64,000 nucleotides of DNA from a virus: the IMG/VR virus record IMGVR_UViG_3300033388_007160, positions 1-64,000 of that record, one strand, 5' to 3'. Position 1 is the stretch's first letter, and each line of letters opens with the position of its first letter. Under the pieces are notes generated by a model. That model saw only the letters and a program-made list of their open reading frames with translations, was not told the origin of the DNA and did not search any database. Below are positions 1 through 43,380 of this stretch, piece after piece. The translations under genes and the position numbers were made by a program.

Positions 1-843
1 GAAGACGGCCTCGCCATCGCCCGTCTGACTCGTGCCTATCCTCAGCGCGTGCATAAAATCCCCGTGCCCATACAGCTCAACTACGATGAAGTCCGCCGGA
101 AGATTGACTCGTATCGTGAGCAAATGGACGTGGACACAACGGTTACTTACGACAGCACTTCTGCTGGCTTCCGTATGGTCGGTCAGAGTTCGCCTACCAA
201 TGTAGATACGGATTACTATCTGCCTCGACTTTATACGCCGGACGGCAAGTTTGTTGATGGCGATGTTGAGAACCTACCTGCAGACAATCCCTATCTCACC
301 GACCTTGACGACATTTATCTGGACCTGAGGCGACTGATTTGCGCCCTCAATGTGCCGCTTGAATACCTGAACATGCGCGTCGGGCAACGTAGCTTCGTGG
401 ATAAGGCTTCCGAAGAAGCCCAGGAAAGCTTTGCGTATCTTATCCGTCATGTGCAGATGGCTTATGCCCACGGCCTTCGCCAGATATTCGACCTTCAGCT
501 TCTTCTGAAGGGCATCAATCCGCTGGAGGCCAAATATGAGGTGATGTTCCCCGTGGTCAGCCCGATAGCAACCAAGCGGTCGGCACAGGTTGACGCCATC
601 CGTGCAAATGTGGCTATGGTCTGGGCCAAACTTGGCATACCCGCTGAAGTGATTGGCCGGTCTGCCCTCCATCTCAGCCGTGACGACCTAGAAAGGTGGC
701 TCCAAGCCACAGGTGGCAAAATCTCCACCGAAGGCCTGGAGAAGTGGATAGACTACGCTTTAATGCAACTCAAACCCGATGAAGAAGAGGAGGGCGAGAA
801 GGAATATGAGCCTGCTGGAGCGGATACAGCAGCTACACGATGA
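1..843 (+). CDS. Portal protein, T4 gp20-like (5' truncated by window edge)
   Basis: Frame is open from base 1. EDGLAIARLTRA..RV, DYYLPR, VENLP and DI..LRRLICALNVP parallel T4 gp20 motifs (EDA.VIYRITRAP.RR, EDYWL.RR, V.TLPG, ALRVP). Confidence 0.85.
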   Translation, partial: EDGLAIARLTRAYPQRVHKIPVPIQLNYDEVRRKIDSYREQMDVDTTVTYDSTSAGFRMVGQSSPTNVDTDYYLPRLYTPDGKFVDGDVENLPADNPYLTDLDDIYLDLRRLICALNVPLEYLNMRVGQRSFVDKASEEAQESFAYLIRHVQMAYAHGLRQIFDLQLLLKGINPLEAKYEVMFPVVSPIATKRSAQVDAIRANVAMVWAKLGIPAEVIGRSALHLSRDDLERWLQATGGKISTEGLEKWIDYALMQLKPDEEEEGEKEYEPAGADTAATR

Positions 844-3800
844 AGCCCATGAGAAGCAGGATAAAGAGTTGCATGAGCTTGCCCGGCTGCTCATGGACAT
901 CTTTGACTTGGGCCACATAAGTATTGACGAACTGGACGAGCAGCCGGATGACCTGTGGCATAAATTTCCTCTGGCTGTGTCCGTCGCCAAGCAGGCTGTC
1001 CTTCAAATCGGTTCTTCCGTCAAACGCACAGACTATCACGATATAGACCTTCTCGTCCGCAGTGAAGGGGCCTGGGAACTGCTGGACGCCGTATCAGGCA
1101 AACTTGAACAGGTTCTCGGTGCTCCTATCCATCTGGTGCATGATGAATCTGGCCCGCATGGAGACTATGTGCCTGTTTATGATGTTGTGCTAATCCGGCG
1201 GCCTGAAAGGCAGCTTATCCACCCCGATGGCGTCGTCAGGCCGGGGGAATTCGTCAGAATTGGCCCATGGCGTCGCGTAGGGACATTCAAATTCCCCGTG
1301 GTGGCCCAGCATCTTATCCGTGGTGAACGTTACCAGATTCACAAGATTGGCGAAAAAATCATTGTCTTCAATAACGAAGGTGAAGTGATAGAAGATGACC
1401 TCTCGGTAAGCAACTTCGCCCTGGCCTTCTGGCGCATGGATGAACCTCAGGTTGCCGTCTGGGAAGGCGTATGGGACGGGGAAAACTTCTGGATTTGTGA
1501 ACTTCTTTACCATGAGGACGCCCAGGCCTGGAACATGCCTCTCCAGCATCGCCTTGCCCTGATGCAAAAATATGACTACCCCGAACCGGTGAGAGTCGTG
1601 CCCTATGAAATCATCCTGACGCCTGATGATTTGCTTGAACTTGAAGAAGGCACCTATGTCATCAAATGGCGCTATGAGCGTATAGACCTGCAGCGGCCCT
1701 TCTGGTTCGTATATGAAGCCCAGGCCATTAAGCCGGGGCAGTTCTTCAAGCTACTGAAGCCAGGTGCTTCCTATCATGGCCGTGAGTTTTTCTCTATTGA
1801 TGAGATTTGGGAATTCTGGGCCAAGCGCTTCATTGAAGAAGGCCATAAAATTTACTGCCAAGCCAAGATCGATGGTACGCACTGCGAGGGACATGTTTGG
1901 GCTGGCGGCGAGCAAGTTCGTATCTTCACAGAAGACCGTGCCCGTGACCGCAGCCAGTATCTCGGTCAGCTTGTTAAAGCGATGAAGCAATGGTGCGAAG
2001 ACGCTGACGTAGATAGCATCGTTTTTGACGGCGAAATCGTTTGGTATAAGAATGGCAAGGTCATTCCTCGCAAAGACATGGCTGCTATCTGGGGCGGTAA
2101 GCGAGATTTGAGCAATGAAGACATTCGCTGGTTCATCTTTGACCTTGTTTATGTAGACGGCGAAGACATACACGAGCAGCCCTATCAAGAACGGTTTAAG
2201 CGCCTCAAGGAACTTTTCAGCAAGGCCAGCGCAGAGGTTAAGAAGCGACTCATTCTCATCCCCAATCGTGTGGCCGATAGCAAGGAGACCTTCTATAAAC
2301 ACTGGGATTGGGCCTCCTCTTTCTCGTTCAGCGAGGGCATGGTGTGCAAGCTTGATACGATGACTTACGAGTTGGACGGCGGCACTGTCTACATGGCGAA
2401 GTGCAAAACTCGAAAAGAAATCCACACTTTAGTCATAGGCCGCCGCAGAATTGCTGGAAAAGACAACACGTATCAGTATCGCTGTGCCTTGAAAGCACCC
2501 GGTGGCTACCAAGCTATTGAAGCCGAGCGCAAAGTCACCGACAAAGACCTCGAAACAGAAAATGAATGGGAGATGGCTCCTAGTTGGCCGAGGCGTGAGA
2601 AGGGTGAATATGCATATGGTTCAACTTATGCTGTGGAAATGGAACGTCCGGCCAAGCTTGGCGAAATCATCTCTGTCATGGTTGACAATATAAATGTCTG
2701 GGAAGGTGATGATGGCAAGGAACACATCTCTTGGGAAAAGCCGCGAGTGATGAACATCCAACCCGAAGAGAAAGAACCCGACTCTGTGGAGTTCGCTAAG
2801 AAGCTGGCTAAGTACGGCACAAGGAAGGCCGAGGAAGTTGAATCGGCTCCTGCTGATTCAGATGAACAAGCAACAGTTGGCGAGGCTGTAGAGGTAATTG
2901 ACAAAGAAATCCCACCGGAGAGAGGCAAGGATGATGAAGGTGGCGAGGGCGGCGATGATGATGTGCTTTCGCGCTTCTGGTTTGAGATAGACGGCCAGGA
3001 AGTTGAACAGGACGACGAGCCCAACAAGTTCTGCTATCAGCATCATGTTCGGGGCATCATGATGCCCGATACGGTTAAGCGTGTGCAGAAGATACTTTTG
3101 CAGGGTGGCGAGGAGGCCGAGAAGGTCTGGAAGGAATTTGGCCTGGCAACGTTGACTATCCCTGTGGAAGAGCTCAAGCAGAAGGTTCGGGCTGCCAAAC
3201 CTGGCGAAGTCAGCAGTATCATCAATCAGGCTCTTGACAAGAAATTCCCCGGCGAGATTGAAGTGGCCGACCTTAAGCGTATAGTGCAGCGCGGTAATTG
3301 TCACGGCGATTTGCGCATCGAGGCCCCGCCCAAGCGTGAATTTCTGCTGGGCATCACGCAGGCTGTGGTGGGCAGTGCATTACAGTTCATGGACGATCCG
3401 AAGCATATAGAAGAACTTGGCGAAGAGAAGTTTATCGAGGGAGCCGAACAATGGCCTGCTGCCCTCAAATACTTCCAGCCCTATGGCTGGCTTACGCTGG
3501 TTGACTGGGGCGAATATGAATGGTCGCCGCCTGGTGATGTGGGGGCTACGAAAAACACGGCTGCCGTCTTCTACCTCGTGGACAGAGGCCAGGCCATCCT
3601 TGGCGTCCAGAAGCACGACTTCCATGAAGTGTTCTTGATATTCGAGAGGAACAAGAAATTGAGTGGCCGTTATATCTGGACGAAGGTCAACCTGCAGGGG
3701 CAGTGGACATGGCTTGGCCGTCGGCCCAGAGATCAGACGCCCTACATCCTCACGCACAATAAAGAAAAGGAAGAAGAAAAGGCCAAGCAGGAACATGGCT

Positions 3801-3925
3801 GGATAGTCTGGAATCCACTGGCCTGCGAAGCCCTTGCCAAGACCAAGCTCAAGAACCTGCTGCCCGTCAACTGGGAAGACAAAGTTGAACCCTTCTTCGA
3901 CGAACCAAGGGTGGACTTTAGCTAA
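806..3925 (+). CDS. Multidomain ATP-dependent DNA ligase: Pol-beta-like NTase + degenerate ligase copy + active ligase/OB + LigD-type 3'-phosphoesterase
   Basis: NTase motif IGSS..DIDLLV. Ligase motifs AKIDG, FDGEI, FDLVYVDG, EGMVCK, AKCK. C-terminal FCYQHH..HGDLRIE..VDRG..KLSGRY resembles the LigD PE domain. ATG 806 follows GAAGGA (ORF track starts at 779). Confidence 0.85.
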   Translation: MSLLERIQQLHDEAHEKQDKELHELARLLMDIFDLGHISIDELDEQPDDLWHKFPLAVSVAKQAVLQIGSSVKRTDYHDIDLLVRSEGAWELLDAVSGKLEQVLGAPIHLVHDESGPHGDYVPVYDVVLIRRPERQLIHPDGVVRPGEFVRIGPWRRVGTFKFPVVAQHLIRGERYQIHKIGEKIIVFNNEGEVIEDDLSVSNFALAFWRMDEPQVAVWEGVWDGENFWICELLYHEDAQAWNMPLQHRLALMQKYDYPEPVRVVPYEIILTPDDLLELEEGTYVIKWRYERIDLQRPFWFVYEAQAIKPGQFFKLLKPGASYHGREFFSIDEIWEFWAKRFIEEGHKIYCQAKIDGTHCEGHVWAGGEQVRIFTEDRARDRSQYLGQLVKAMKQWCEDADVDSIVFDGEIVWYKNGKVIPRKDMAAIWGGKRDLSNEDIRWFIFDLVYVDGEDIHEQPYQERFKRLKELFSKASAEVKKRLILIPNRVADSKETFYKHWDWASSFSFSEGMVCKLDTMTYELDGGTVYMAKCKTRKEIHTLVIGRRRIAGKDNTYQYRCALKAPGGYQAIEAERKVTDKDLETENEWEMAPSWPRREKGEYAYGSTYAVEMERPAKLGEIISVMVDNINVWEGDDGKEHISWEKPRVMNIQPEEKEPDSVEFAKKLAKYGTRKAEEVESAPADSDEQATVGEAVEVIDKEIPPERGKDDEGGEGGDDDVLSRFWFEIDGQEVEQDDEPNKFCYQHHVRGIMMPDTVKRVQKILLQGGEEAEKVWKEFGLATLTIPVEELKQKVRAAKPGEVSSIINQALDKKFPGEIEVADLKRIVQRGNCHGDLRIEAPPKREFLLGITQAVVGSALQFMDDPKHIEELGEEKFIEGAEQWPAALKYFQPYGWLTLVDWGEYEWSPPGDVGATKNTAAVFYLVDRGQAILGVQKHDFHEVFLIFERNKKLSGRYIWTKVNLQGQWTWLGRRPRDQTPYILTHNKEKEEEKAKQEHGWIVWNPLACEALAKTKLKNLLPVNWEDKVEPFFDEPRVDFS

Positions 3926-3976
3926 GCTTTTGCCATAAAATTGGCAACAGAAGGTTGCCAGAGGAGGCGATAAGGA

Positions 3977-4330
3977 ATGCGGCTTAAGATTTATTTGGCG
4001 CTCGTCATCGGGGCTTTCCTGTGGGCCCTCGGTTCGGTTTGGGCTACAACGGAGAAGGTCTGTGGTGTTTGGGGCGTCATAGCTTATGGCATAGTGGCAG
4101 CAGCATGGCTTGCCATGGTGCTTGTGGCGCTTCACAAGGCAGGCTTGCCTTATCCGGTGGACATGAAATACGTCAATATTGCCTATGCGGTGCTAAGCGT
4201 GCTGACGTTCGGCGTGGCTTTTGTTGTCATACTTTTGACTTATGGTGACACGGCTGCTGTGCTCTGGGCCGGTATGGCCTCAGTAGGCTTGCTTGGCATG
4301 GCATACGAATGGTCGAGGGGGCGAGCATAA
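3977..4330 (+). CDS. Small membrane protein (~4 TM)
   Basis: Four hydrophobic segments; AAGGA upstream. Confidence 0.6.
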   Translation: MRLKIYLALVIGAFLWALGSVWATTEKVCGVWGVIAYGIVAAAWLAMVLVALHKAGLPYPVDMKYVNIAYAVLSVLTFGVAFVVILLTYGDTAAVLWAGMASVGLLGMAYEWSRGRA

Positions 4331-4523: not shown

Positions 4524-7487
4524 ATGAAATACGCTGAGATTACACCACAAAACGTTGCCAAAGCGCCGGATGAAGAACTGCGCAGCATTCACCGGCGTTT
4601 GCATAGCTGGTGGGTTAACCTGAAGTGTGAACGTGACATGGCGAACAAAAGTGAACATATGACTTGCCGTGGGATACTTGACAGGCATTTGCTTGTTGTG
4701 AAAGAATTTCTCAAGCGAGGCATTAAGCATAATGAGGTGGATGCGTTGGATACCATGACAAACAGGCTGCTGCGCAAAGAAGAACAGGATGCCGATGGCC
4801 GGTGTGGGACAGGCCAAGGGGCTGGTAAGCCCAAGAAGGGCGATGGCGGCGTGGAGTATTGCGTCTGTCCCAATTGTGGTTATAAAATGAAACATGAACG
4901 GGGCACGCCATGCAATCAATTCAAGTGCCCGGAGTGTGGTACACCGATGCAGGGAGCAGATGAAGCGGCCAAGAAAGATTACGGCAAGAAGACTGATTAT
5001 GGCAAGCTGAAGGGTAAGTGCCCATATGCAGGCGACCCTGAGAAATGCCCGGCGGCTGCCAAGGGTTACGGCTATCCGCCCAAGAAAGGCGAGGGGCCGC
5101 CTGAGGCAGCCAAGAACTGTAAGTATGCCAAGGAATATAAGTGCCCGTATTTCGGCAAGTATTACGGATACAAGAAAAAGTCCAAGGATGCATGGGTGCC
5201 TTCTGACCTTCAATCTCTTGCCCAAGCATTGCTGAAAGCGGGCACCTACGAAGAGTGCGAAAGCATAGCTATCCAGGCCCAGCAGCTTGAAGTGCCCGAA
5301 GAGTTTGAGGACTTCCGCAGGCTTATTATCGCTGAGGCCGAAGAGAAGGCACAGATATTCAAGTCCGACAATCGCGTTGAGCTTATTGACTCGTTTGAGG
5401 GGCAGGTTCTTGAGCTGCAGGAAGCCGATGAAGGCCGGGTTCGGTTTAAGGCCATCGTCGGCCAAGTCAATAAGGTCAACAAGAACAATCGGCTCTATCC
5501 GAAGAAGGAAATCGTCAGGAACCTGCCTCGCGTAAACGAGCTTATCAAGGCAGGGAAGTTTGTCGGTTTGGCTGACCATCCAAGCTTGTTCAGCAGTGGT
5601 TCAGTCCTTGACATTGCTGTAAAATTTACAGCGGCAGGCCTGAGGGGCAATAACATTGTTGTTGAAGGCGAAGTCGTGCCCACGCAGGCCGGTAAGGAAG
5701 TTGTCACATTGTGGAAGCATGGCGTTAACACAGAATGGTCGCTGCGTGGGTATGGCGAACTCCGGCCTGCCAAGGATAAAGACGGCAAAGATTTGGGCTA
5801 TGAAGTTGTAGAGAATTATGTGTGGGATGCAGTTGACATAGTATTGCGAGGTGCCGCAGAGACTCAGACTTTGAAAGTTGAATTTGAGCACGAAGACCAC
5901 CAGACTGAAAACTCTATACAAGAAGCGAGCCGGGGTGGAGACCCCGGCGGTGAGGCGATGGCTGAAGAGAAGGTTGTTGAACAGGCCGAACAGGCACAGG
6001 CTCAAGAGCAGGCTCAGGAACAGGCTACCCAGCCTGAGCCCCAGATAAACGTTGATGAAATCGCCAAGCAGCTTGAAGAGAAGGTTGCTGCCAAGGCCAC
6101 TGAGGTTGTGGACGCGGCCCTGAAGGCTGCGGAACTGGCGGCCTACAAGCGGCAGCGCATTGAGGCCGAACTGAAAGACCTTGAAGAGAACGTGTGTGCG
6201 CCTATCGTGCAGGCCGTCGAACGGGCATCCTCGAAGGAAGAAGTTGACAAGGTCTTCGAGGAATTCAAGCCGCTTGTTGAGAAGGTGCTTCTGGCGAAGA
6301 AGGTTGAGTATGCCGGTGTGGGCATCATCACCGAGGAGCGCCGGAAGCGCCACTATCGCGACCTGTGGGTGCATCCGGCCACGGGCGAAATCGCTGAACG
6401 GCCTGAAACGGTGGCCGAAGTCAAGGCCGCCCTGCTTGAAGGCCTCGAAGGCCGTACGCGCAAAGTCTTCGAGGATGTCCTTGCGAACTATGAGGAGAAC
6501 TACCCCGAATATCTGGAGGCCTGCACGAAGCACCGCGTGATGGAAGCGGCCACGACAACGACGGCGCTTGGTGTGACGCTGCCGCAGATTCTGCCGCTGA
6601 CCCGCCAGTTCTTCCCGAACCTGATACCATTTGAGATTGCGTCGGTGCAGCCACTGAAGGGCCCGACGGGTCGCGTCTACCATCTGGCGTTCAAGAAGGC
6701 AGGCGGTGGTGACTTGGCCGACAGCTCGTCCTTTGACAGCACTTGGGCCGACCATACGGAAGGCGATTCGAAATCCCAGATTACGCTGCAGTTCAGCTAC
6801 ACCGACGTTGAAGCCGAAGAGAAGGCCATCTACTTCCACGTCACCGAACAGCTCGTGCAGGACATGAAGGCGCTCTATAATCTGGACGCCGAGAAGGAAC
6901 TGCTGCAGGCGGCTTCCGATGAGATTGCCCGCGAGGTCAACTACCAGTTCCTTGAACTGCTGCGTGCCAATGCCACGGCAGGTTCCGAGAACTATGGCAC
7001 CAAGCGGCCCAGCGGCTACACGTCCGACCTCGAATGGTATCGGATGCTGGTGGCGTTCATCCAGAAGGTGTCGGCCAAGATTGGTGCGAAGGTCAACCAT
7101 GAAGGCAACTGGATTGTAGCCGATCCGAACAGCATTAACATCCTCGCTGCTGTGGACGCCCTGCAGGGTGCCCAGCCCGAACGCAACTACGGCACGGGCC
7201 TGGTCCGGTTGGGTGTCATCCGTGGCTTCACGGTCTACCAGGCACAGTGGTTCCAGCCCAACACCATCCTCGTGGGCTTCAAGCCGCCGAGCTGGCAGTA
7301 CGCGGGTGCCGTGTATGCGCCATATGTGCCGCTCTACATCGGCCAGACTGAGATTGACGCCGAGACGAACACCCGCAAGCGGTCGGTGTCCAGCAGGGCG
7401 GCCATGGCGGTGCTGAACGGCAACGCATACGGCATCGTGAACGTCCAGTTCGGCACCACGGGCACGCCGCCATTCGACAGCGCCTAG
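4524..7487 (+). CDS. Polyprotein: N-terminal extra domains + prohead protease (T4 gp21-like) + scaffold + major capsid protein (T4 gp23-like)
   Basis: Protease NKNNRLYP..G.ADHP..SLRGYG. Coiled-coil scaffold. Capsid LIPFEIASVQPLKGPTG, EIAREVN, YAPYVPL. N-terminal CVCPNC..CPECG zinc ribbon. Confidence 0.9.
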   Translation: MKYAEITPQNVAKAPDEELRSIHRRLHSWWVNLKCERDMANKSEHMTCRGILDRHLLVVKEFLKRGIKHNEVDALDTMTNRLLRKEEQDADGRCGTGQGAGKPKKGDGGVEYCVCPNCGYKMKHERGTPCNQFKCPECGTPMQGADEAAKKDYGKKTDYGKLKGKCPYAGDPEKCPAAAKGYGYPPKKGEGPPEAAKNCKYAKEYKCPYFGKYYGYKKKSKDAWVPSDLQSLAQALLKAGTYEECESIAIQAQQLEVPEEFEDFRRLIIAEAEEKAQIFKSDNRVELIDSFEGQVLELQEADEGRVRFKAIVGQVNKVNKNNRLYPKKEIVRNLPRVNELIKAGKFVGLADHPSLFSSGSVLDIAVKFTAAGLRGNNIVVEGEVVPTQAGKEVVTLWKHGVNTEWSLRGYGELRPAKDKDGKDLGYEVVENYVWDAVDIVLRGAAETQTLKVEFEHEDHQTENSIQEASRGGDPGGEAMAEEKVVEQAEQAQAQEQAQEQATQPEPQINVDEIAKQLEEKVAAKATEVVDAALKAAELAAYKRQRIEAELKDLEENVCAPIVQAVERASSKEEVDKVFEEFKPLVEKVLLAKKVEYAGVGIITEERRKRHYRDLWVHPATGEIAERPETVAEVKAALLEGLEGRTRKVFEDVLANYEENYPEYLEACTKHRVMEAATTTTALGVTLPQILPLTRQFFPNLIPFEIASVQPLKGPTGRVYHLAFKKAGGGDLADSSSFDSTWADHTEGDSKSQITLQFSYTDVEAEEKAIYFHVTEQLVQDMKALYNLDAEKELLQAASDEIAREVNYQFLELLRANATAGSENYGTKRPSGYTSDLEWYRMLVAFIQKVSAKIGAKVNHEGNWIVADPNSINILAAVDALQGAQPERNYGTGLVRLGVIRGFTVYQAQWFQPNTILVGFKPPSWQYAGAVYAPYVPLYIGQTEIDAETNTRKRSVSSRAAMAVLNGNAYGIVNVQFGTTGTPPFDSA

Positions 7488-7508
7488 TAGCTTAACAGCG
7501 TAACTCGG

Positions 7509-7546
7509 ACCGGGGGCCGTCGGGATGACGGCTCCCGGTTTATTTT
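7509..7546 (+). terminator. Intrinsic terminator after the capsid gene
   Basis: ACCGGGGGCCGTC/GACGGCTCCCGGT stem (one G-U) followed by TTATTTT. Confidence 0.8.
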
Positions 7547-12333: not shown

Positions 12334-12674
12334 TGCCCCTGCCTCATAGAGTTACTATCAAGCGACCTAAGTGGTCAGATACCCGCCACGAACAGTATCG
12401 GGGCGAAGAGACCGTTGCCACAGATGTGAAAGCCCTCATTTCCCCTGCCGACCGGTCGGTAAGGGCTTTGGAGAACTGGGGCGGTATTGAGCTGTTGCGG
12501 GATACAGTTTTCCTTGAACCCGGTATTGATGTTCGGCGCGGTGATGTTATAATTGATAATGCATCGGGTGATAGATGGCGCGTTATTGAACCGCCAAAAG
12601 TCTTGCAGAATCCGATAACATGGGAAGATGACCACATCGAATGCACAGTTGAAAAGGAGGTTATCGGCCAGTGA
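12330..12674 (+). CDS. Head closure protein
   Basis: HRVTIKRP..DVRRGDVI..WRV; size and position. Confidence 0.65.
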   Translation: MMPLPHRVTIKRPKWSDTRHEQYRGEETVATDVKALISPADRSVRALENWGGIELLRDTVFLEPGIDVRRGDVIIDNASGDRWRVIEPPKVLQNPITWEDDHIECTVEKEVIGQ

Positions 12675-12692
12675 TAGGCCGGGTGGCCCGCA

Positions 12693-13256
12693 ATGCTATC
12701 ACAACTCGTCACAAGCGCACTGAAATCTTTGTTTCCGTCTTATAAAGCATCGGCTGCCAAGGGCATACTTGCATTCCTGTTCGGGGGGATTGTGCTGTAT
12801 TTCACCGAGGCACCTGAGAACATCGTTAACATCTGGCGCGTGATTGTGTGGTTGATTCTCGGAGATGTGGCAACTGGTTCGGCAGTTGCAATCATTCAGC
12901 GAAGCTTTAAGAGCACCATCTTTGCCCAGCGTGGGGCCAAGAGGTTAATCGGCTATGTGATGACCTTTGGCTTGGCTGCCGCAATGGACAGACTGGTTGG
13001 AAGCCACTACATGATAGCCTCTTGGGCTGCATACTATATTGCCGTTAGCGAGATTGCCTCCATTCTCGAAAACCTTGGCAAGCTTGGCATCCCCATGCCC
13101 AAGTTCATTGAAGTGATGATGAAGACCATGCGCCAGAAGGCCCAGAAGGGCAGTGACCTCAAGGACGTCATGGAAGAATTCGAGGAAGAAATCGAAGCCG
13201 AAATCCAGAAGCGCCAAGAGAAGAAAATCTGGAAGCCGGGGGATGAAGAAGAGTGA
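12693..13256 (+). CDS. Holin (phage holin 4-like)
   Basis: TM segments with DVATG and EIASILENLGKLGIPMP. Confidence 0.8.
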   Translation: MLSQLVTSALKSLFPSYKASAAKGILAFLFGGIVLYFTEAPENIVNIWRVIVWLILGDVATGSAVAIIQRSFKSTIFAQRGAKRLIGYVMTFGLAAAMDRLVGSHYMIASWAAYYIAVSEIASILENLGKLGIPMPKFIEVMMKTMRQKAQKGSDLKDVMEEFEEEIEAEIQKRQEKKIWKPGDEEE

Positions 13257-13765
13257 GTGAAGTCTATCTGCCTGAAGCAGGCACAGTGCTGATTGACCGT
13301 TTCCTCTATTATGTTGACTGGGAAGGCAGTGCCAGTGCCCCCTTCCATGTGGACATAGCCACCAAACGTGAGGGTCACCCGCATCATTATATCTTTCGCA
13401 TGGTTGAAGACCCCGGCAGTGTCCGGACGCCACTTTGCCTGGTTTCGCCTGAAGAATGGCCTGAAGTGGGTGAAACAATGGGCCAACAGCGCGTCCTGAG
13501 GTTCCGGTGCAACATCTTTTACGTCATTGCCATTGACCCCTATGATATTCCGGCAAGGAAGATACGCGAGGGTATCAGCAAGATAGTGGAGAATGTGATG
13601 GCTTCCAATCGCTTGGGGCTTGATTGGGTGGCAAATCTTGAGCATACCGGCATCTCATTTTCGCCCGATTTCGAGCAAGTTCTGCGCTTCAACATGATAC
13701 CCTTTAGCTGCGCGATGGCGAGTTTTGTGGCAGAAACATATGAGGACTTGGGCCACAAACCCTAA
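13253..13765 (+). CDS. Putative tail terminator
   Basis: Position and size only. Confidence 0.4.
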   Translation: MSEVYLPEAGTVLIDRFLYYVDWEGSASAPFHVDIATKREGHPHHYIFRMVEDPGSVRTPLCLVSPEEWPEVGETMGQQRVLRFRCNIFYVIAIDPYDIPARKIREGISKIVENVMASNRLGLDWVANLEHTGISFSPDFEQVLRFNMIPFSCAMASFVAETYEDLGHKP

Positions 13766-13804
13766 TCTTGATTAGCCTAATTGCGATAGGCAAAGCTTGC
13801 AGAG

Positions 13805-14416
13805 ATGATTGGCATACGAATCAATCCGACAGCAGGTGGTAAAAGAAGCTGGCTGGCCGCGATACAGCGGGCTCGCAAGCGTTGGGAACAGGTGCGGTCT
13901 TTCAATATCCCCGGAGCCCTGAGAAGTCGTATGTCGAGTGACTTCGTTCACTTGGTGCAGAATGAAGTTGAATGGGGCCAAGTAACCTGGACGTATCAGA
14001 AGCAATATTATCGGGAACGGGGCAAGGGTATGTATGGTTCAGACCCTGCAGGTTCGGGCATCGTCTACTGGGGCCGGATTAATCCACAGGAGAGATTGGA
14101 TAGGGTGGACTGGAAGGATGCAGCACGGGGGCCTCGTTTTCTTGAATCTATGAAGGGGCAATTCCGGCGTTCGGGCGGCACGAGAGCTGAAGTGCAGATA
14201 CTCACGTTTGCCATCATGAATCCGTATCCGAAAGACCAATTGCCAGCGCCGATTATGTATTACTTCCGGGAAGGTTGGCATTCGCCAGTTGAAAACAAGC
14301 AAATGCAGAAAAGGCCGGTTGACAAATATTTGGCCCGATACCAGTTCCCACGCTTGAGGCGAAGGATAACCTCAATCTGGCGGCAAGCTTGGAGGCCGCT
14401 GATGCACGTCACATAA
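13805..14416 (+). CDS. Putative tail completion/neck protein
   Basis: Basic protein in the neck cluster. Confidence 0.35.
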   Translation: MIGIRINPTAGGKRSWLAAIQRARKRWEQVRSFNIPGALRSRMSSDFVHLVQNEVEWGQVTWTYQKQYYRERGKGMYGSDPAGSGIVYWGRINPQERLDRVDWKDAARGPRFLESMKGQFRRSGGTRAEVQILTFAIMNPYPKDQLPAPIMYYFREGWHSPVENKQMQKRPVDKYLARYQFPRLRRRITSIWRQAWRPLMHVT

Positions 14417-14431
14417 AAAGGAGGCTTCTGC

Positions 14432-15532
14432 ATGAAGATTTTTATCCCTCGCGAACAGCTTGCCTATCCTTCGGGCCGGGGGCCAGAGGTGGCTAGCTAC
14501 CAGCTTCTTGAGGCCGATGAACCTTACCTTGTTAATGCACTGGTTGCAGAACTGCTCCAGCAAAACTCGCCAAAGTCTGAAGTTCGGGATGTGGCCCCTC
14601 GGCCCCCAAGCAAGGATACACGGAAATTACTCATCCTGTTCCCAGGCGGGATAGGCGATGTGCTCTGCATGAAGGCCTGCCTGCAGGCTTTGGATGAACA
14701 GATGCCCTATCCCAACCTGGAAGAAGTTGGTTTTGCCAGTGTGCGGGAAGACGACTGGCTGATTAATGACACGCGCTTTAAGCCCTTCATCCACTTCACG
14801 GTTACTGTCTTTGATTATCCCATCTCGCTAAAAATGGCCGAATATTATGATAGCTGGGTAAGTTACGGCACGCTTGAACGCCAGAGTATCAACAGAGAGT
14901 TGCAGGATACTTTTGCTGAGATTCTTGGCGTCAAGCCTTTGGGGCGGCCCGCACGATTGAACCCTGACCCTGCATTGCAAAGAGTGCTTTCCGGCTATAT
15001 CCGCGACAAGAGTCGCATCAAGGTGGGAATGCAAATCTATTCGGCAGCCCATTATCGTTCTTGGTTCCCTGTCAATGCCGTTTTGACTGCCCAAGAACTC
15101 GTTAAAATGGGCTGTGATGTTTATATCCTCGGCACGCCTACACAGCGTTTGCGCTTCACGAAGGACGGCCAACCGGTTGGGCCACCCGAACATATTTACG
15201 ACATAAGCGGCCTGCTGAGGTCGGTGAAAGAGTTCATTGCCTTCGCAAGCCTAATGGATGCCGTTATCACTGTAGATACGGCCCTGTTGCACATTGCCGG
15301 ATGCTTGTATAAGCCCACTCTGGCCCTATTCAGTATCACACATGGCCGCTACAGGACTTCCTACTATCCTACCGTGGAATACCTGCAGGGCGAAGCAGAT
15401 TGTGCGCCTTGTCTGAACATTGCTACATTGCCGGATTGTGGCGAAAAGTTCTGCAAAGCGATGGTGGCCTTGACGCCCGACATAGTGGTTCCCAAGTTTG
15501 AACAAATTCTGAAGGAGGCTGAATTGCTGTGA
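14432..15532 (+). CDS. Glycosyltransferase, GT9 (heptosyltransferase-like)
   Basis: GGIGDVL, DTALLHIAG, C-terminal CAPC..C..C. Confidence 0.85.
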   Translation: MKIFIPREQLAYPSGRGPEVASYQLLEADEPYLVNALVAELLQQNSPKSEVRDVAPRPPSKDTRKLLILFPGGIGDVLCMKACLQALDEQMPYPNLEEVGFASVREDDWLINDTRFKPFIHFTVTVFDYPISLKMAEYYDSWVSYGTLERQSINRELQDTFAEILGVKPLGRPARLNPDPALQRVLSGYIRDKSRIKVGMQIYSAAHYRSWFPVNAVLTAQELVKMGCDVYILGTPTQRLRFTKDGQPVGPPEHIYDISGLLRSVKEFIAFASLMDAVITVDTALLHIAGCLYKPTLALFSITHGRYRTSYYPTVEYLQGEADCAPCLNIATLPDCGEKFCKAMVALTPDIVVPKFEQILKEAELL

Positions 15533-38020: not shown

Positions 38021-41000
38021 ATGAAAACAAAGCTAAGACTAAAAGCAGACAACCGGAAGCTCACCAAACAGATTGTCCGAGGCAAGCCCCTCGACCGCCC
38101 CGTAGTAGTCAAGTGCCATCATGTAACTATTGAGAGGAATAACGCTGAGTCTCTGGCGAAGAATCTTGAAGGTGTCCACTACCGCAGGCCTTCCCGCAAT
38201 CGTGAGAATTATCCCATCATGGAGTGTCTGCAGAAGTTGGGCCAGGGCCGGATTGTAGGCTTCGGCACCAAGCGCAAGCACCGCAAGCGCAAGACACGGT
38301 ATGAACTGCTCAGCCAGAACAATCCCCACTCGGCTTACAGCAAAATCAAAGCTTATATGCAACAATATCCCGGCCTGCTGAAGGATGACCCCAAGCAATG
38401 GGCCGAACAGCTCAAAGGCATGGGTTATTGCGGGAAGACTTACCTGCGCGTCATGGCCCAGATGGTCAAAGACCGCATACTCATCTGGACGTATGATAAT
38501 TACACTGAAGGCTGGCGCGTTGCCACCAAAGACGACCCCGATTGGGTGCCACGGTTCCCGTTGTATCCCTGGGCATTCGTGTTTGCCTGGCTGGCTGCGG
38601 GCCGCAGCATACTTGACCTCAAGCTCGACTGGATGACCTACGGTTATAGCCCCGCTGAGATAGATGAAGGATTGCGGTTCCTGCGCAAGCATGGTTTAGT
38701 GCAGGTTGATGAGAAGGGACATCTGCAACCCAATGTTGAACCCACAGGCTATCGGCGGGCCGTCGAATACGAAGACACAGGCGACCCCATCTTTGAGGTC
38801 TGCAAAACTGGGCTGTGGGAACAGCGGAAGAAGTTGCCTCGTATGCCCAAGGTGCAACAATACCTTTACGTGATAGCTTTGGCCTATGCCGTGGCCTTCC
38901 CCGAAAGGCTGATAGAATACTGCAAGAGTCTGGCCTGGACACGTTTGCGCAACTTAAAACTCGACTTATCACCGTGTGCTTATGGCGATTTGCAGCTCGT
39001 CAGAAGAGTGGGCCGCAATGAGCGCCGCAAGGGCAAGCACAACCGTTACCCCAATGCTACACTGCAAAATCTGCTGGCCCTTATCAAGCGCTATAAGCTC
39101 ACCATCGTGGAACCGGAACTCCTGGCCGAAGCCCTCGGCATCACCGCCCGCCACGCCCATCGCCTCCTCTGGCGGGCACATGAGCTGGGCCTGTTAACAA
39201 TTGTGAACATCTATCGCCGCCCCGGCTCAAGGGCATATCTTTACCGCGTTTCATTTAATTTTGCAGCGCCGGATAAAAACTGTCGCGTAAAGTGCGATTT
39301 CGGGACAAGCAATTCCCCCTCATACTCCCCCTATAAGCTCTTTAGTACTCCTAGTACAAGTACGATTGATTCGAAGGCAAGTAAGGGAGGGCACGGGCCC
39401 GGCCAGCAGGCCGTTGGCCTGCCGGGATTGCTGTTTGGGGAGAAGTATATAGCTTACAAGAGAGGGAAAGGAAAAAAGCTTTGGGGGAGGGTTTTGGGCG
39501 TGCTGGGGGTGGAGGGTTTGGGCCGGGGCCTTGCGTTATTTGCCAAGCATCTGGAAATAGAAAAACTTAAGGCCTGGGGGTGGAGGAGAGGTCACCCATA
39601 TGAGGTGCTGGTAGGCAGGTTTGAGAGGTTTGAGGAAGGATGGAAGCAAGCGCTTGTGAAATTTTTCACAGGCAGGGAAGAGGGAGGGGGTGTGGAGGGG
39701 TTTGTTGGGCTTGTGCTGGCGTGGTTGAACGGGGAGTGGCGGGTGGTATGTGGCCTGCTGGAGGAGTATGTGGATTGGCTTTATAAGAGGGCCACGCAGT
39801 TGGGACATGATGGCAGACGCAAGCTGGCCTGGTGGACGATGCAGGATTACCGGAAGGCACGGGACTTGCTGGAAGAGGCCCGGCAACGGCCCATAGACTA
39901 CATCCTTCGCTTCTGGTATGGTTATTGCACGGGCTTCCGCTGGGTGGATGACGCCATTGAAAGGTGGGCTTTGAGGTTTACCGGCCAGGCTATGCGGCTA
40001 TACTTACTGCGGGGTGCTAAAACTTTCTACATCAGTGACGAGGGACATGTTATGGCGCTTGACGGGCGGAAGGAAGCAAGTGGCAACGGCATCCACATGC
40101 ACACGGATTACGGCACGCTCGACCCCAAGCCCAGGCGCAAGACGAAGCCTACCATCCGTGAGCAGGAGGCCATCCCCAACCAGGGGATAGATTTGACTGC
40201 TGCCCTGAAGGAGGCATCGGAGGCCGAAGAAGAGGCTTCTGTTGATGAAGAAGTTAAAGGCCAGGATGAAGTGGTTATCGTTCAGAGGCCAGGGGAAAGC
40301 TGGTCACTGCCCCTCGGCCCCAACCGGCCCAAGCACATAAGAGTCAAGACAGAAGACGGCCAGACCATCATCTGCTACGAGCTTGATGAAGAAGTGGATG
40401 TATACAGGATAGCTTCCTATCCGGGCACCGGTGGCCTCGATGAAGGCATGTATGTGCCCCAGTGTGCCGAGGAATTCTGGCGCTTGCCGCCTGATGCCCC
40501 CATCGCCATACTTGAATCCCGGCTGCCTACTCATTTGCGCTATCTGGCCCGTTACCGCCAGATTAAGCAGAAATTCCGCGAAGCCAAGCAGATTGAGGAT
40601 TTGCTGACCCGCAGCATGCCAAGGAATACAACCTACGGCCTCGGCCTGATAGGTATCGTCACTGACTGGTATCTGTGGTATATCAAGAAGCAACGTGTGC
40701 GACACTGGACGCCGGAATGGTATCTTGCTTACGGGGAAGTTTTGCTGAAAGCCTGTCACTACTATGCGGCCCCCGGCGAACCTGCAGGCCTTAAGATTGG
40801 GGCTGCTGAAACCTGGCAGAAGGCTTTACAGGGCCAGGCGGTATCGCCCGTCGAGCTGGCCGATGCCTATGACCGCCTGACAATGGTCACGCCCATTGAG
40901 TCCAGTGTTGCTCGCCATATGAACCAGCCTTGGCGGGGCATGTGGGATTGGTTCTGGAATTGGGTGTTGAAGGGTATGCCCGAAGATGAGAAGTATAAGG

Positions 41001-41164
41001 CGTTGCACAACGTGATTGTGGCCTGCCAGAGAGGTCATGAGAAATATGATGTTGAAACCTATTGCGATGACCTGACCGGCCTTGCCGTAATAGAAGCTTT
41101 CGACGACTTTGATGCTGACGCGATACGGGAAGCCCTGCGACGTTACGGCGACCCCCGAAGCTAA
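38021..41164 (+). CDS. Large protein with winged-HTH segments, putative replication initiator
   Basis: LAEALGITARHAHRLL..ELGLL; first gene before the primase-helicase; internal skewed DNA. Confidence 0.45.
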   Translation: MKTKLRLKADNRKLTKQIVRGKPLDRPVVVKCHHVTIERNNAESLAKNLEGVHYRRPSRNRENYPIMECLQKLGQGRIVGFGTKRKHRKRKTRYELLSQNNPHSAYSKIKAYMQQYPGLLKDDPKQWAEQLKGMGYCGKTYLRVMAQMVKDRILIWTYDNYTEGWRVATKDDPDWVPRFPLYPWAFVFAWLAAGRSILDLKLDWMTYGYSPAEIDEGLRFLRKHGLVQVDEKGHLQPNVEPTGYRRAVEYEDTGDPIFEVCKTGLWEQRKKLPRMPKVQQYLYVIALAYAVAFPERLIEYCKSLAWTRLRNLKLDLSPCAYGDLQLVRRVGRNERRKGKHNRYPNATLQNLLALIKRYKLTIVEPELLAEALGITARHAHRLLWRAHELGLLTIVNIYRRPGSRAYLYRVSFNFAAPDKNCRVKCDFGTSNSPSYSPYKLFSTPSTSTIDSKASKGGHGPGQQAVGLPGLLFGEKYIAYKRGKGKKLWGRVLGVLGVEGLGRGLALFAKHLEIEKLKAWGWRRGHPYEVLVGRFERFEEGWKQALVKFFTGREEGGGVEGFVGLVLAWLNGEWRVVCGLLEEYVDWLYKRATQLGHDGRRKLAWWTMQDYRKARDLLEEARQRPIDYILRFWYGYCTGFRWVDDAIERWALRFTGQAMRLYLLRGAKTFYISDEGHVMALDGRKEASGNGIHMHTDYGTLDPKPRRKTKPTIREQEAIPNQGIDLTAALKEASEAEEEASVDEEVKGQDEVVIVQRPGESWSLPLGPNRPKHIRVKTEDGQTIICYELDEEVDVYRIASYPGTGGLDEGMYVPQCAEEFWRLPPDAPIAILESRLPTHLRYLARYRQIKQKFREAKQIEDLLTRSMPRNTTYGLGLIGIVTDWYLWYIKKQRVRHWTPEWYLAYGEVLLKACHYYAAPGEPAGLKIGAAETWQKALQGQAVSPVELADAYDRLTMVTPIESSVARHMNQPWRGMWDWFWNWVLKGMPEDEKYKALHNVIVACQRGHEKYDVETYCDDLTGLAVIEAFDDFDADAIREALRRYGDPRS

Positions 41165-41199: not shown

Positions 41200-43380
41200 A
41201 TGGCTGCTACTGATAGTGTCTTTGAGCAGATAAAAGCCCGCATAAACCTCATTGAAGTCATCGGCCAAGAAGTTGAACTCAAGCGCGTCGGCAAATACTG
41301 GATGGGCCTTTGCCCCTTTCATTACGAAACAGAACCCAGCTTTGCCGTAACAGAGAACTTCTATTATTGCTTCGGCGCCACCTGTAACGCAAAGGGAGAC
41401 ATATTCACGTGGCTGATGGTTCGCAGGGGCCTCAGCTTTTCTGAGGCAGTCCGGGAAGCAGCCCGCCTCGCTGGTATCCCATTAGACGATAACTGGCAGG
41501 AACGCCTCAAAAAAGCCCAGGAACATCAGGCCAAACTGGAAGCCTACGTCAAGCAAAGCCAGGAATACCTCTGGTCAAAAAAGGGCCAAACGGCCCTGGA
41601 TTACCTTCGCAATGAACGCAGGCTTACAGACGAGACAATCAAGCAGTTTGGCCTCGGCTATGATAGCAAACGCGACGCCATAGTCATCCCGCTGATGGAC
41701 ATGTCTGGCAGGCTGGTTGCCTATGCTCTCCGCCTTCTAAATAGCACCAAACGCTATCAAGTCTTCAATCAACCCTTCTTCCAGCGTCGTCGTTATTTGT
41801 TCAATGAGCAAGTTTTGTGGCAGCACAAAGACCAGCCTCTCTACCTCTGCGAAGGTTATTTTGATTGCATGAGTATCGTGCAGGCGGGCTATCCGAGGGT
41901 TGTGGCTCTTTGTGGCGGCCAGCTCAATGATTATCAGCTCAAGAAGCTCACCCAAGCTGCCCGCCAAATCATCCTAGTGCCCGACAACAAATCAGCAACG
42001 GACTGGAAACTGGCTCGCCGCAATATAGACCTCATTCGCCGTTTTGATGCCGAAGTAAAGGTGCTTGTTGCTGTGCCGGAAGGCGATGCCAATGATACCG
42101 ACCCCGACAGGCTCAAGGAAATCCTTGCATCGCCCAATGAACCCGAAGTTGCCATGCTGGACTTCATCGTTTCCGGCACCCAGGCCGAACAATACGAAAA
42201 GGCCCGGCAACTTCTCCAGACGATACACAATCCCCTGCTTCGTGATGATATTATCCAAGAATTAGCCAAGCGTTGGGGTAAAAGCACGCACCTGGTTAAG
42301 CAGGCTTTGAGTGGCCGGGCTGTCTCGGTGAATGTAGTTAAAAGCGAACATACAGTCACCATCCTTCGGCACATGGCTGCCGAGATAGCCCAAGAACACG
42401 AAATCAACCTCCGCTGGCCGGGTTTTGAACCAGAAGTCCTTCAACGTATCCACGCCGGTCATCTTATAGGCATAGCAGCCCGCACTAATGTGGGTAAGAC
42501 ACTGTATGCCCTCAACCTGGCACCTTGGTCACGTGGCCTTTACAGCCAGGTTTTCTTCACCCTTGAACAGCCCTACAGTGAAATCGCCTACCGCATGGCA
42601 CGAATCACTCTGGGACATGTCATACCGCATATGTATCCCTATCTGGATGCGGCCATCCGGAAGGCCGAGGATGAGTTCAAGGACTTCAACATTTTGAACG
42701 AAGAAGTTTTTGGTCGTAACCTTCAGCCTCTCATCACAACGTTGTATTCGGATTTCTATGTAGTGGAAGGCGTTTTTGACGTGGAAGGCCTGAAGGGGGC
42801 CATCGCTAAGCTTGCCGAAGAAGTCAGGCTGCCCGTCCGCATAGTCTGGATAGACTACCTCGGCCTGATGCGGGCCAAAGGTGACACCGAATACGTCCAG
42901 CTCAGCAACCTCATCCGCGACCTCGCACGCCTGGCAAAGGAGCTTAACCTTTTAATAATATTCCTGCACCAGCTTAGCCGCCGGGGTGGCACTGGCAAGG
43001 AGCACGTGGAAATTGACATGCTTCGCGGTAGCGGCCAGATTGAAGAAGCCGTTGACCTTCTGCTGGGCCTTTACCGACCCCAGCTTAACGATGAATACCA
43101 GCAGAACAATCAGGTCTGCACCGAGGAGCCTTTCTACGTGGACGTTATCAAGAACCGCCACGGCCCCAAGCAACGGCTTAAGCTCACCTTCTACAAGCGC
43201 AGCCTGCTAATCACGTCGGTTCATCCCTTGCATGGCCCCGAGGTTTTGCGCAGCGAGATAATGGATATACTGGAAACGAAAGGAGCTGATAGCCATGACG
43301 CAGGAGCAATTGAGCGAGGCGGCGGAGAATGTGGAGGCCATCCGGCAGGAACTGGACAATCTGGCGAAGAGGTATTTTGA
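41200..43380 (+). CDS. DNA primase-helicase (CHC2 Zn finger + TOPRIM + DnaB/SF4)
   Basis: CPFH..CFGATC, EGYFD, AARTNVGKT, IDYL, QLSR, LRGSG, KNRHG. Confidence 0.95.
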   Translation: MAATDSVFEQIKARINLIEVIGQEVELKRVGKYWMGLCPFHYETEPSFAVTENFYYCFGATCNAKGDIFTWLMVRRGLSFSEAVREAARLAGIPLDDNWQERLKKAQEHQAKLEAYVKQSQEYLWSKKGQTALDYLRNERRLTDETIKQFGLGYDSKRDAIVIPLMDMSGRLVAYALRLLNSTKRYQVFNQPFFQRRRYLFNEQVLWQHKDQPLYLCEGYFDCMSIVQAGYPRVVALCGGQLNDYQLKKLTQAARQIILVPDNKSATDWKLARRNIDLIRRFDAEVKVLVAVPEGDANDTDPDRLKEILASPNEPEVAMLDFIVSGTQAEQYEKARQLLQTIHNPLLRDDIIQELAKRWGKSTHLVKQALSGRAVSVNVVKSEHTVTILRHMAAEIAQEHEINLRWPGFEPEVLQRIHAGHLIGIAARTNVGKTLYALNLAPWSRGLYSQVFFTLEQPYSEIAYRMARITLGHVIPHMYPYLDAAIRKAEDEFKDFNILNEEVFGRNLQPLITTLYSDFYVVEGVFDVEGLKGAIAKLAEEVRLPVRIVWIDYLGLMRAKGDTEYVQLSNLIRDLARLAKELNLLIIFLHQLSRRGGTGKEHVEIDMLRGSGQIEEAVDLLLGLYRPQLNDEYQQNNQVCTEEPFYVDVIKNRHGPKQRLKLTFYKRSLLITSVHPLHGPEVLRSEIMDILETKGADSHDAGAIERGGGECGGHPAGTGQSGEEVF

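Follow-up and report, generated by a model that had tools for sequence, protein, structure and literature searches.

A LigD-like ligase and 3′-phosphoesterase polyprotein encoded among viral head genes, a candidate DNA end-repair enzyme of head assembly

Bacterial LigD and the stand-alone archaeal 3′-phosphoesterase (PE) proteins (structures 3N9B, 3N9D, 3P43, 3P4H and 5DMP) are the closest characterized enzymes to the subject of this report, a large multidomain protein encoded next to the portal gene in the viral record IMGVR_UViG_3300033388_007160 (86,019 bp), the first 64 kb of which are hereinafter called the window. In the reference enzyme, PaeLigD, the metal site of the PE domain consists of His42, His48 and Asp50, complemented by Arg52, and two further residues, His84 and Tyr88, are essential. 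A further relevant group is that of the polyvalent proteins of phages and conjugative elements, which are large and multidomain, are encoded together with portal and terminase genes, contain enzymes that modify DNA, and are predicted to enter the capsid and to be delivered along with the genome (Iyer et al., 2017; PMC5512222); the main text of that article does not mention LigD, and ligase passages in it concern RNA ligases, not DNA ligase. Enzymes that are loaded into the head and act on, or on behalf of, the incoming DNA have precedents in DarB of phage P1 and in Alt and the internal proteins of T4 (PMC5512222). Finally, a distinct family of ATP-dependent DNA ligases has been recorded, without explanation, in the structural module of the magroviruses (Philosof et al., 2017; PMC5434244).

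The window protein joins a nucleotidyltransferase (NTase)-like domain, a degenerate and an intact ligase adenylation domain, an OB-fold domain and a PE barrel in a single polypeptide (Table 1). The explanation that we consider best overall, with confidence slightly better than even, is that it is a DNA end-repair protein with several enzymatic activities and forms part of the head-assembly programme of the virus.

Domain organization of the ligase-phosphoesterase protein

The C-terminal 324 residues of the protein were modelled by AlphaFold from an alignment of 35 family members (pLDDT 90.9, pTM 0.88; residues are numbered throughout from the opening of the open reading frame (ORF) at position 779). 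The predicted fold is the eight-stranded barrel of the LigD PE domain, and this assignment is well supported by structural comparison. The six best matches found by Foldseek in the Protein Data Bank (PDB) are all LigD PE domains, with a probability of 1.0 for the first five and 0.97 for the sixth, 5DMP, followed by matches at or below 0.04, and the VIA Z scores are 10.6 for 3P43 (2.3 Å, 123/124 residues, 22% identity), 10.3 for 3P4H, 9.2 for 3N9B, 9.0 for 3N9D and 8.0 for 5DMP, against 2.5 for the next fold. At the sequence level, the same 324 residues have no Pfam match at E 0.1, LigD_N included; the profile of the domain retrieves 3P43 alone from the PDB sequences, with an E value of 0.23 that is not significant by itself; and LigD_N matches in relatives (4/33 and 6/26, best E 1.4e-5) reach at most 28.1 bits, below the cut-off of 31.1.

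The conservation of the barrel was assessed in 152 proteins, the top family members, which comprise 149 of the 1,299 matching clusters described below together with P0001, P0006 and P0007. The signature QHH..HGDLRIE contributes H756, H842, D844 and R846, which align to QxH...HxDxR of 3P43 and are nearly invariant (147, 147, 148 and 148 proteins, respectively), and E950 is present in all 152. The position of the LigD His84 is occupied by Q900 (Gln in 67 members, Glu in 62, His in 8) and that of Tyr88 by W904 (Trp in 151/152), a mapping that is provisional given that the profile alignment to 3P43 is weak in this region. Because Gln or Glu and Trp stand at these two positions, and because the family has invariant residues of its own (Lys897, Lys945 and Arg964), the barrel family is best classified, judging from the alignments, as a branch of its own within the LigD phosphoesterase superfamily, one in which the pocket is altered.

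The barrel of the window protein is split by a helical insert. Inserts of 71-119 residues occur at the same site in 24 of the 152 family proteins, including the window protein and P0006, and one more member has a 356-residue insertion; uninterrupted relatives read, e.g., YVAQHHIRGNSIHTDLRME, near the LigD signature. In the viral contig L004, the barrel of a relative (12616-14454, +) contains a LAGLIDADG-type intein in addition to the helical insert, and the preceding 1495-residue ORF combines the NTase-like and ligase parts with a metallo-beta-lactamase fold, a zinc ribbon and an AAA ATPase. The C-terminal helical tail of the window protein takes the place that is occupied by a prohead protease or a second barrel in many relatives.

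The Pfam domain DNA_ligase_A_M (PF01068) spans residues 355-543 with an E value of 1.3e-18 and 67.9 bits (68.4 bits at the genome level) against a cut-off of 26.2, the PDB sequence matches are to archaeal ligases and human ligase I, and the ligase motifs KIDG (363-366), FDGEIV, FDLVYVDG, EGMVCK and AKCK are all in place, with the same columns invariant in relatives. The identity of this domain as an ATP-dependent DNA ligase is not in doubt, and it is predicted to be a working enzyme. The OB-fold region has no match to Pfam DNA_ligase_A_C; nevertheless, it shows colinear local homology in all ligase-bearing relatives, and the BLASTP alignment to the ligase of the archaeal virus ANMV-1 runs through it.

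The domain that precedes the ligase is a degenerate duplicate of it, in which QHLIRG lies at the position of motif I. An hhalign comparison with the genuine ligase domains of eight members of the family aligns this copy over 92 columns (probability 92%, E 5e-7) and brings motifs I, III and IIIa into register. Its fold matches, to the adenylation domains of LigIV, other ligases and capping enzymes, are weak (Foldseek E 2.6e-3, VIA Z 5-6), and the duplicate is seen in close relatives only. On the other side of the ligase, the acidic linker is reflected in low pLDDT values at the beginning of the C-domain model.

Near the N-terminus, residues 78-90 (nt 1010-1048) form a GSS..DID motif that conforms to the signature hG[GS]...[DE]h[DE] of the Pol-beta superfamily, with a third acidic residue downstream. 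Among 72 representatives, the glycine is invariant (72/72), as is the acidic residue at position 90 (Asp or Glu, 72/72), D88 is kept in 69/72, and Asp or Glu is found at the position of D122 in 48/72. The profile search of the PDB gave weak matches to the palm domains of Pol beta and terminal transferase TdT (E 0.03-0.4), the one to Pol beta (E 0.03) being aligned on the motif; in addition, NTP_transf_2 is matched in 2/26 relatives (best E 7e-4) and DNA_pol_B_palm in 1/26 (E 0.027). The N-terminal model is mediocre overall (pLDDT 64), with values of 75-92 for the residues of the NTase-like part.

The N-terminal helical hairpin is kept ahead of the NTase core in relatives and recurs at the N-terminus of the protease-scaffold-capsid polyprotein, where BLASTP aligns it with the hairpin of L004 (33% identity over 80 residues, E 2e-10); a jackhmmer search started from the hairpin alone found nothing beyond the closest relative. 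Candidate sites for a T4-type prohead protease, with the consensus L/I-x-E, are present in the N-terminus and the linker (e.g., SLLE, residues 11-14), but motifs of this kind are expected by chance, and no claim is made for them.

These results bear on an earlier note on this DNA, which had picked out the GS..DxD motif, the ligase-like copy devoid of the catalytic lysine, the intact ligase core, the acidic linker and the QHH..HGDLRIE domain, all of which are recovered here, and had anticipated the PE barrel that the C-terminal model displays. The same note had called the protein a LigD analogue. This description holds for the architecture, the PE fold and the metal-site His/His/Asp plus Arg, and fails for the provisionally mapped equivalents of His84 and Tyr88, which would be replaced, and for Pfam LigD_N, which stays below threshold.

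Family distribution and association with head genes

A search of 1.84 billion representative proteins with the barrel profile yielded 1,299 clusters (50% identity) at E≤1e-3, of which 1,053 pass E 1e-10 and 491 pass E 1e-30. In the top 152 members, the order NTase-like domain, ligase, OB domain, barrel is found in at least 59, the ligase accompanies the barrel in about 80, the NTase-like domain and the barrel occur without a ligase in about ten, and the barrel is combined with other or unrecognized parts in 52. The structural database BFVD contains one structural relative. In three contigs (L006, L007 and L008, e.g., L008:8258-10939), a 557-residue protein combines the NTase-like domain with a DNA methyltransferase and is followed by a stand-alone 334-residue barrel with the insert; therefore, the NTase-like domain and the barrel travel together even without the ligase.

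The partners fused to the 33 long members of the family are mostly predicted DNA enzymes: a Dam-type methylase in 11, the XkdF protease (Pfam S78_2) in 7, a metallo-beta-lactamase fold in 5, uracil-DNA glycosylase (UDG), C5 methylase and PNK3P in 2 each, and a pyrimidine-dimer glycosylase in 1. In some relatives, 2H phosphoesterase domains are added. One member, P0007, retains an intact frame of 764 residues and the overall layout, and lacks the GS..DxD stretch, the ligase lysine, the OB domain and the barrel histidines; because the frame stays intact without the catalytic residues, this protein hints at a role beyond catalysis.

The gene contexts of eleven distant viral contigs were compared, and in them the family is consistently linked to head assembly. 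A portal gene lies directly upstream in ANMV-1 (L001), L011, L012 and L013, and one gene further upstream, with a minor-head-protein-like gene in between, in L009. The portals of these five contigs belong to four PHROG families (146, 12, 10963 and 113), to which the window and its close relative L003, the contig of P0006, add a fifth, T4-like one. In L010, the upstream gene encodes a MuF-type minor head protein, and prohead protease or capsid genes lie downstream in L004, L008 and L011. Moreover, in 34 of the 152 representatives, the barrel is followed by an XkdF-type prohead protease in the same polypeptide. Prohead proteases assemble inside procapsids, and the protease fusions therefore place the repair domains in the procapsid, at least transiently. 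A further variant is a 1071-residue head-module protein of L009 (8228-11443, +), which consists of a ferritin/rubrerythrin-like domain, a PE barrel and an XkdF prohead protease and has no ligase.

In the window itself, the start of the ligase-barrel gene overlaps the end of the portal gene. Position 806 is the likely start because a Shine-Dalgarno sequence, GAGGAGG (788-794), lies 11 nt upstream of the ATG and because a 98%-identical database protein, P0005, begins at the same point. The full portal is a 500-residue protein whose gene spans the circular junction; it was rebuilt across the 114-bp repeat at the record ends, which indicates a circular assembly, and is contiguous in the related strain L017. 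A terminase-like gene precedes it, giving the order TerL, portal, ligase gene, protease/capsid. No convincing + strand terminator was identified in the portal-to-capsid gene string ahead of the strong hairpin that follows the capsid gene, and, as judged from this arrangement, the ligase-barrel gene very likely shares a transcript with those for the portal and the capsid. The earlier note had placed the gene between the portal and capsid genes, and this arrangement is borne out; the replication genes are about 35 kb away. Linkage of homologues to head genes, which that note proposed to check, is seen in the contigs and fusions described above. Its report of no Ku gene in the window extends to the whole 86-kb genome, where PF02735 is absent.

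The gene is real and constrained. Compared with L017, which is 96% identical at the nucleotide level, the ratio of nonsynonymous to synonymous substitution rates (dN/dS) is 0.053 for the whole gene, and all its parts are under purifying selection, with values of 0.00 for the N-terminal domain, 0.14 for the degenerate copy, 0.04 for the ligase, 0.05 for the OB domain and 0.02 for the barrel (linker and tail in Table 1). The whole protein has no PHROG match.

Table 1. Coordinates of the ligase-barrel gene, its parts and other features of the window
Feature	Position	Strand	Evidence or remarks
T4-type portal gene, 3′ part	1..843	+	Pfam Portal_T4 E 8.8e-15, PHROG 213
NTase-like / ligase / 3′-phosphoesterase polyprotein gene	806..3925	+	1039 aa from ATG 806; ORF 779-3925 = 1048 aa
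N-terminal helical hairpin (residues 10-63)	806..967	+	Model helices 12-26, 29-41, pLDDT about 90
Putative Pol-beta-superfamily-like nucleotidyltransferase core (residues 64-150)	968..1228	+	G78-S79, D88, D90, D122
Degenerate duplicate of ligase adenylation domain (residues 151-345)	1229..1813	+	Motif I Lys replaced by Leu, Asp by Arg
ATP-dependent DNA ligase adenylation domain (residues 346-560)	1814..2458	+	K363 in KIDG; motifs III, IIIa, IV, V
Ligase OB-fold domain (residues 561-670)	2459..2788	+	Ends in motif-VI-like W..PRV...EK
Acidic, poorly conserved linker (residues 671-745)	2789..3013	+	dN/dS 0.26, highest of any part
LigD-type 3′-phosphoesterase beta-barrel (residues 746-990)	3014..3748	+	H756, H842, D844, R846
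Helical insert, about 85 residues, splitting the barrel between QxHxRG and HxDxR	3056..3298	+	Alignments A2, A4; model helices 39-110, pLDDT 93-98
C-terminal helical tail (residues 991-1048)	3749..3922	+	Model helices; dN/dS 0.03
Small hydrophobic protein, 117 aa, same operon	3977..4330	+	Translation
Hairpin + zinc ribbon + S77 prohead protease + scaffold-like region + Gp23 major capsid protein	4524..7487	+	One 987-aa ORF; Pfam Peptidase_S77, Gp23
Strong terminator-like hairpin, 16-bp stem then T run	7507..7541	+	First after the portal-to-capsid string
DnaG-DnaB primase-helicase fusion	41200-43380	+	Replication module

Two small ORFs separate the ligase-barrel gene from the protease-capsid gene. 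One encodes a hydrophobic protein that probably has several membrane helices and has no family match in Pfam or PHROG, and the second is 62 residues long. Between the stop codon of the ligase-barrel gene and the Shine-Dalgarno sequence of the next ORF, there is a 7-bp inverted repeat (TGGCAAC...GTTGCCA, 3942-3960) with no T run on the + strand. The protease-capsid ORF (PHROG 207, E 2.3e-22; PHROG 138, E 3.3e-41) contains a CxxC zinc ribbon, a Lys/Gly/Tyr/Pro-rich stretch, a T4-type S77 protease and an acidic coiled scaffold-like region; in the close relative L003, this ORF lacks the first ~113 residues.

The strain L017 (QMZP01000012.1) is a 10.9-kb contig that holds the terminase, portal, ligase-barrel and capsid genes and was the sole return of an alignment-based genome search (alignment A1); the search for related loci with a single protein as the query found none. 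The contig is binned in a metagenome-assembled genome of Candidatus Aenigmatarchaeota from Guaymas Basin, which is likely a binning artefact and yet indicates the habitat. An archaeal host, hinted at by this bin and by the ANMV-1 match, is judged unlikely; the host of the phage is probably bacterial because the genome encodes an M15 peptidoglycan peptidase, a primase-helicase of the DnaG/DnaB type and Ro60. Elsewhere, the genome contains a clamp-like gene, a DNA methylase and a helicase. A 1047-residue ORF without a Pfam match (38021-41164, +), located directly 5′ of the primase-helicase gene, may encode a divergent DNA polymerase. The Ro60/TROVE protein, with a vWA domain, is encoded beyond the window (genome positions 74641-76164, −; L015:10644-12164).

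Proposed function and alternatives

Considering the predicted domains and the gene context together, it is highly probable that the protein functions as an enzyme of DNA end repair and is expressed together with the head genes. The barrel would remove 3′-phosphate, cyclic-phosphate or ribonucleotide blocks at nicks and breaks, the small NTase would then add one or a few nucleotides, and the ligase would seal the ends via lysine 363, following the heal-fill-seal logic of bacterial LigD, except that Ku is missing and the polymerase-like part is of another kind. The protein would be loaded into the procapsid with the protease-scaffold-capsid polyprotein, travel with the DNA and, at entry, repair the nicked or broken phage genome, whether the damage stems from the particle stage or from host nucleases. 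That the protein is physically packaged in the virion, to which the protease fusions of relatives point indirectly, is slightly more likely than not.

A broader scenario is more tentative, and we would put it at somewhat less than an even chance. Under this scenario, tailed viruses of sediments and other slow environments would carry a particle-borne machine for the repair of single-strand breaks and ends, composed of a 3′-end cleaner, a Pol-beta-like nucleotide adder and a ligase and loaded via the prohead protease or the shared hairpin, which would repair the damage incurred during the waiting time or inflicted by host nucleases before viral gene expression starts. In relatives, the same machine would additionally include glycosylases, a PNK-type phosphatase and protective methylases, and as a whole it would parallel, on the viral side, the Pol beta-PNKP-ligase III pathway of eukaryotes.

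Several observations weigh against the packaged end-repair enzyme, in part or in whole. The Foldseek and VIA searches with the N-terminal model listed no nucleotidyltransferase, the lists being filled by other, ligase-like and helical, parts, and the Atlas look-up of residues 1-150 gave sub-threshold leads with scores of at most 0.83, such that the putative NTase assignment stands on the motif and the weak profile matches. The barrel has Gln or Glu in place of the LigD His84, and its chemistry may accordingly differ. The link of the hairpin to the capsid polyprotein is significant against one relative only, L004, with an hhalign probability of 42%. The window protein itself has no fusion to a protease, MuF or portal domain. 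In a search of 50,697 deposited phage records, the family was found in ANMV-1 only, and no cultured phage carries it. Finally, the gene accounts for the single ATP-dependent ligase match in the 86-kb genome, where no NAD-dependent ligase was found, and because it is the only ligase of the virus, the protein may also serve replication.

Among the alternatives, an enzyme that is expressed late and stays in the cytoplasm is rather unlikely. Such a protein would clean and seal nicks in the concatemer for the headful motor, or tidy the ends after terminase cutting, and T4 packaging in vivo indeed needs sealed DNA and depends on ligase. The common operon with the terminase, portal and capsid genes and the lack of a protease fusion in the window protein fit this explanation; nevertheless, it leaves unexplained both the fusions of the barrel with prohead proteases in a fifth of the representatives and the retention of a catalytically dead copy, P0007.

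The possibility that we are dealing with a general replication or recombination ligase that happens to reside in the head operon is improbable. It draws on the absence of a second ligase from the genome, but the replication module, with the primase-helicase and the clamp-like gene, is distant, the position in the head module is kept across unrelated head-gene families, and a ligase that joins Okazaki fragments requires neither a PE barrel nor an NTase. Furthermore, the magroviruses possess a structural-module ligase besides the replicative one (PMC5434244).

Even less probable is the repair of RNA, e.g., of tRNA cleaved by host anticodon nucleases, as T4 does with Pnkp/Rnl. In its favour are the PNK3P and 2H phosphoesterase domains of some relatives, the Ro60/TROVE protein in the same genome, and the activity of LigD PE enzymes on 3′-phosphate and ribonucleotide ends. 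Against it, the window protein has a DNA_ligase_A_M-type ligase with an OB domain rather than one of the Rnl or RtcB type, and DNA is the substrate of the most frequent fused partners (Dam and C5 methylases, UDG and the dimer glycosylase). A mainly structural or assembly role in the head core with vestigial enzyme domains, which P0007 with its loss of all three catalytic signatures and the one dead ligase copy of the window protein would suggest, has the least to recommend it, given that every catalytic residue is present in the window protein and nearly invariant family-wide, and that the ligase and the barrel show dN/dS values of 0.02-0.05.

The proteins that phages are known to inject include polymerases, ADP-ribosyltransferases and anti-restriction proteins. 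A particle-carried DNA break-repair enzyme was found nowhere described in the literature searched, and full-text searches for LigD or phosphoesterase in conjunction with virion, portal or phage returned nothing relevant. If packaging is real, genome repair at entry would join the counter-defence and survival strategies of viruses, the "unexpected" structural-module ligases of the magroviruses would be explained, and the family would offer compact heal-and-seal enzymes that are possible reagents. If the protein is not packaged, it would still represent a new branch within the LigD phosphoesterase superfamily, one whose active site is altered. In either case, the family is large, nearly invisible in cultured phages, and has no Pfam model.

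Comparison with known systems

The window protein resembles LigD in that an ATP-dependent ligase with an OB domain is joined to a PE barrel in which the signature His-x5-His-x-Asp-x-Arg is kept. Unlike LigD, it has a Pol-beta-like N-terminal domain of ~150 residues instead of the AEP polymerase: no AEP or primase-polymerase domain was matched by Pfam or NCBIfam, and the NCBIfam models of LigD match the ligase part only, far below their cut-offs. The domain order, NTase-ligase-PE, also differs, as do the ~85-residue insert in the barrel, Gln/Glu in place of His84 and Trp in place of Tyr88. In addition, the protein is viral, is encoded in a head module and remains below the Pfam LigD_N threshold.

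With the polyvalent proteins, the window protein shares the presence of several enzymatic units, here three predicted enzyme domains and a dead copy, in one polypeptide encoded with portal-terminase late genes; it differs from them by the absence of MuF, portal, zincin and Dar-type domains. P1 DarB and the T4 Alt and internal proteins show no sequence relationship to it. The structural-module ligase of the magroviruses, which have archaeal hosts, has a comparable place in the genome; the respective article does not dissect its domains, reports neither a PE nor an NTase domain in it, and proposes no function. The sole relative among the deposited phage records is that of ANMV-1, AJP62006 (KP703175), annotated as "ATP-dependent DNA ligase" and as a ligase only, which shows the same order of NTase-like domain, ligase, OB domain and PE barrel and follows a portal gene, but is 26-36% identical to the window protein, has an uninterrupted barrel and a second, His-less one, and lacks the degenerate ligase copy.

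The protein combines two known kinds of system, the LigD-type repair module and the polyvalent proteins of phages, and this member of the family is distinguished by being encoded with T4-type head genes, by carrying a dead ligase duplicate and a barrel insert, and by sharing its hairpin with the capsid polyprotein.

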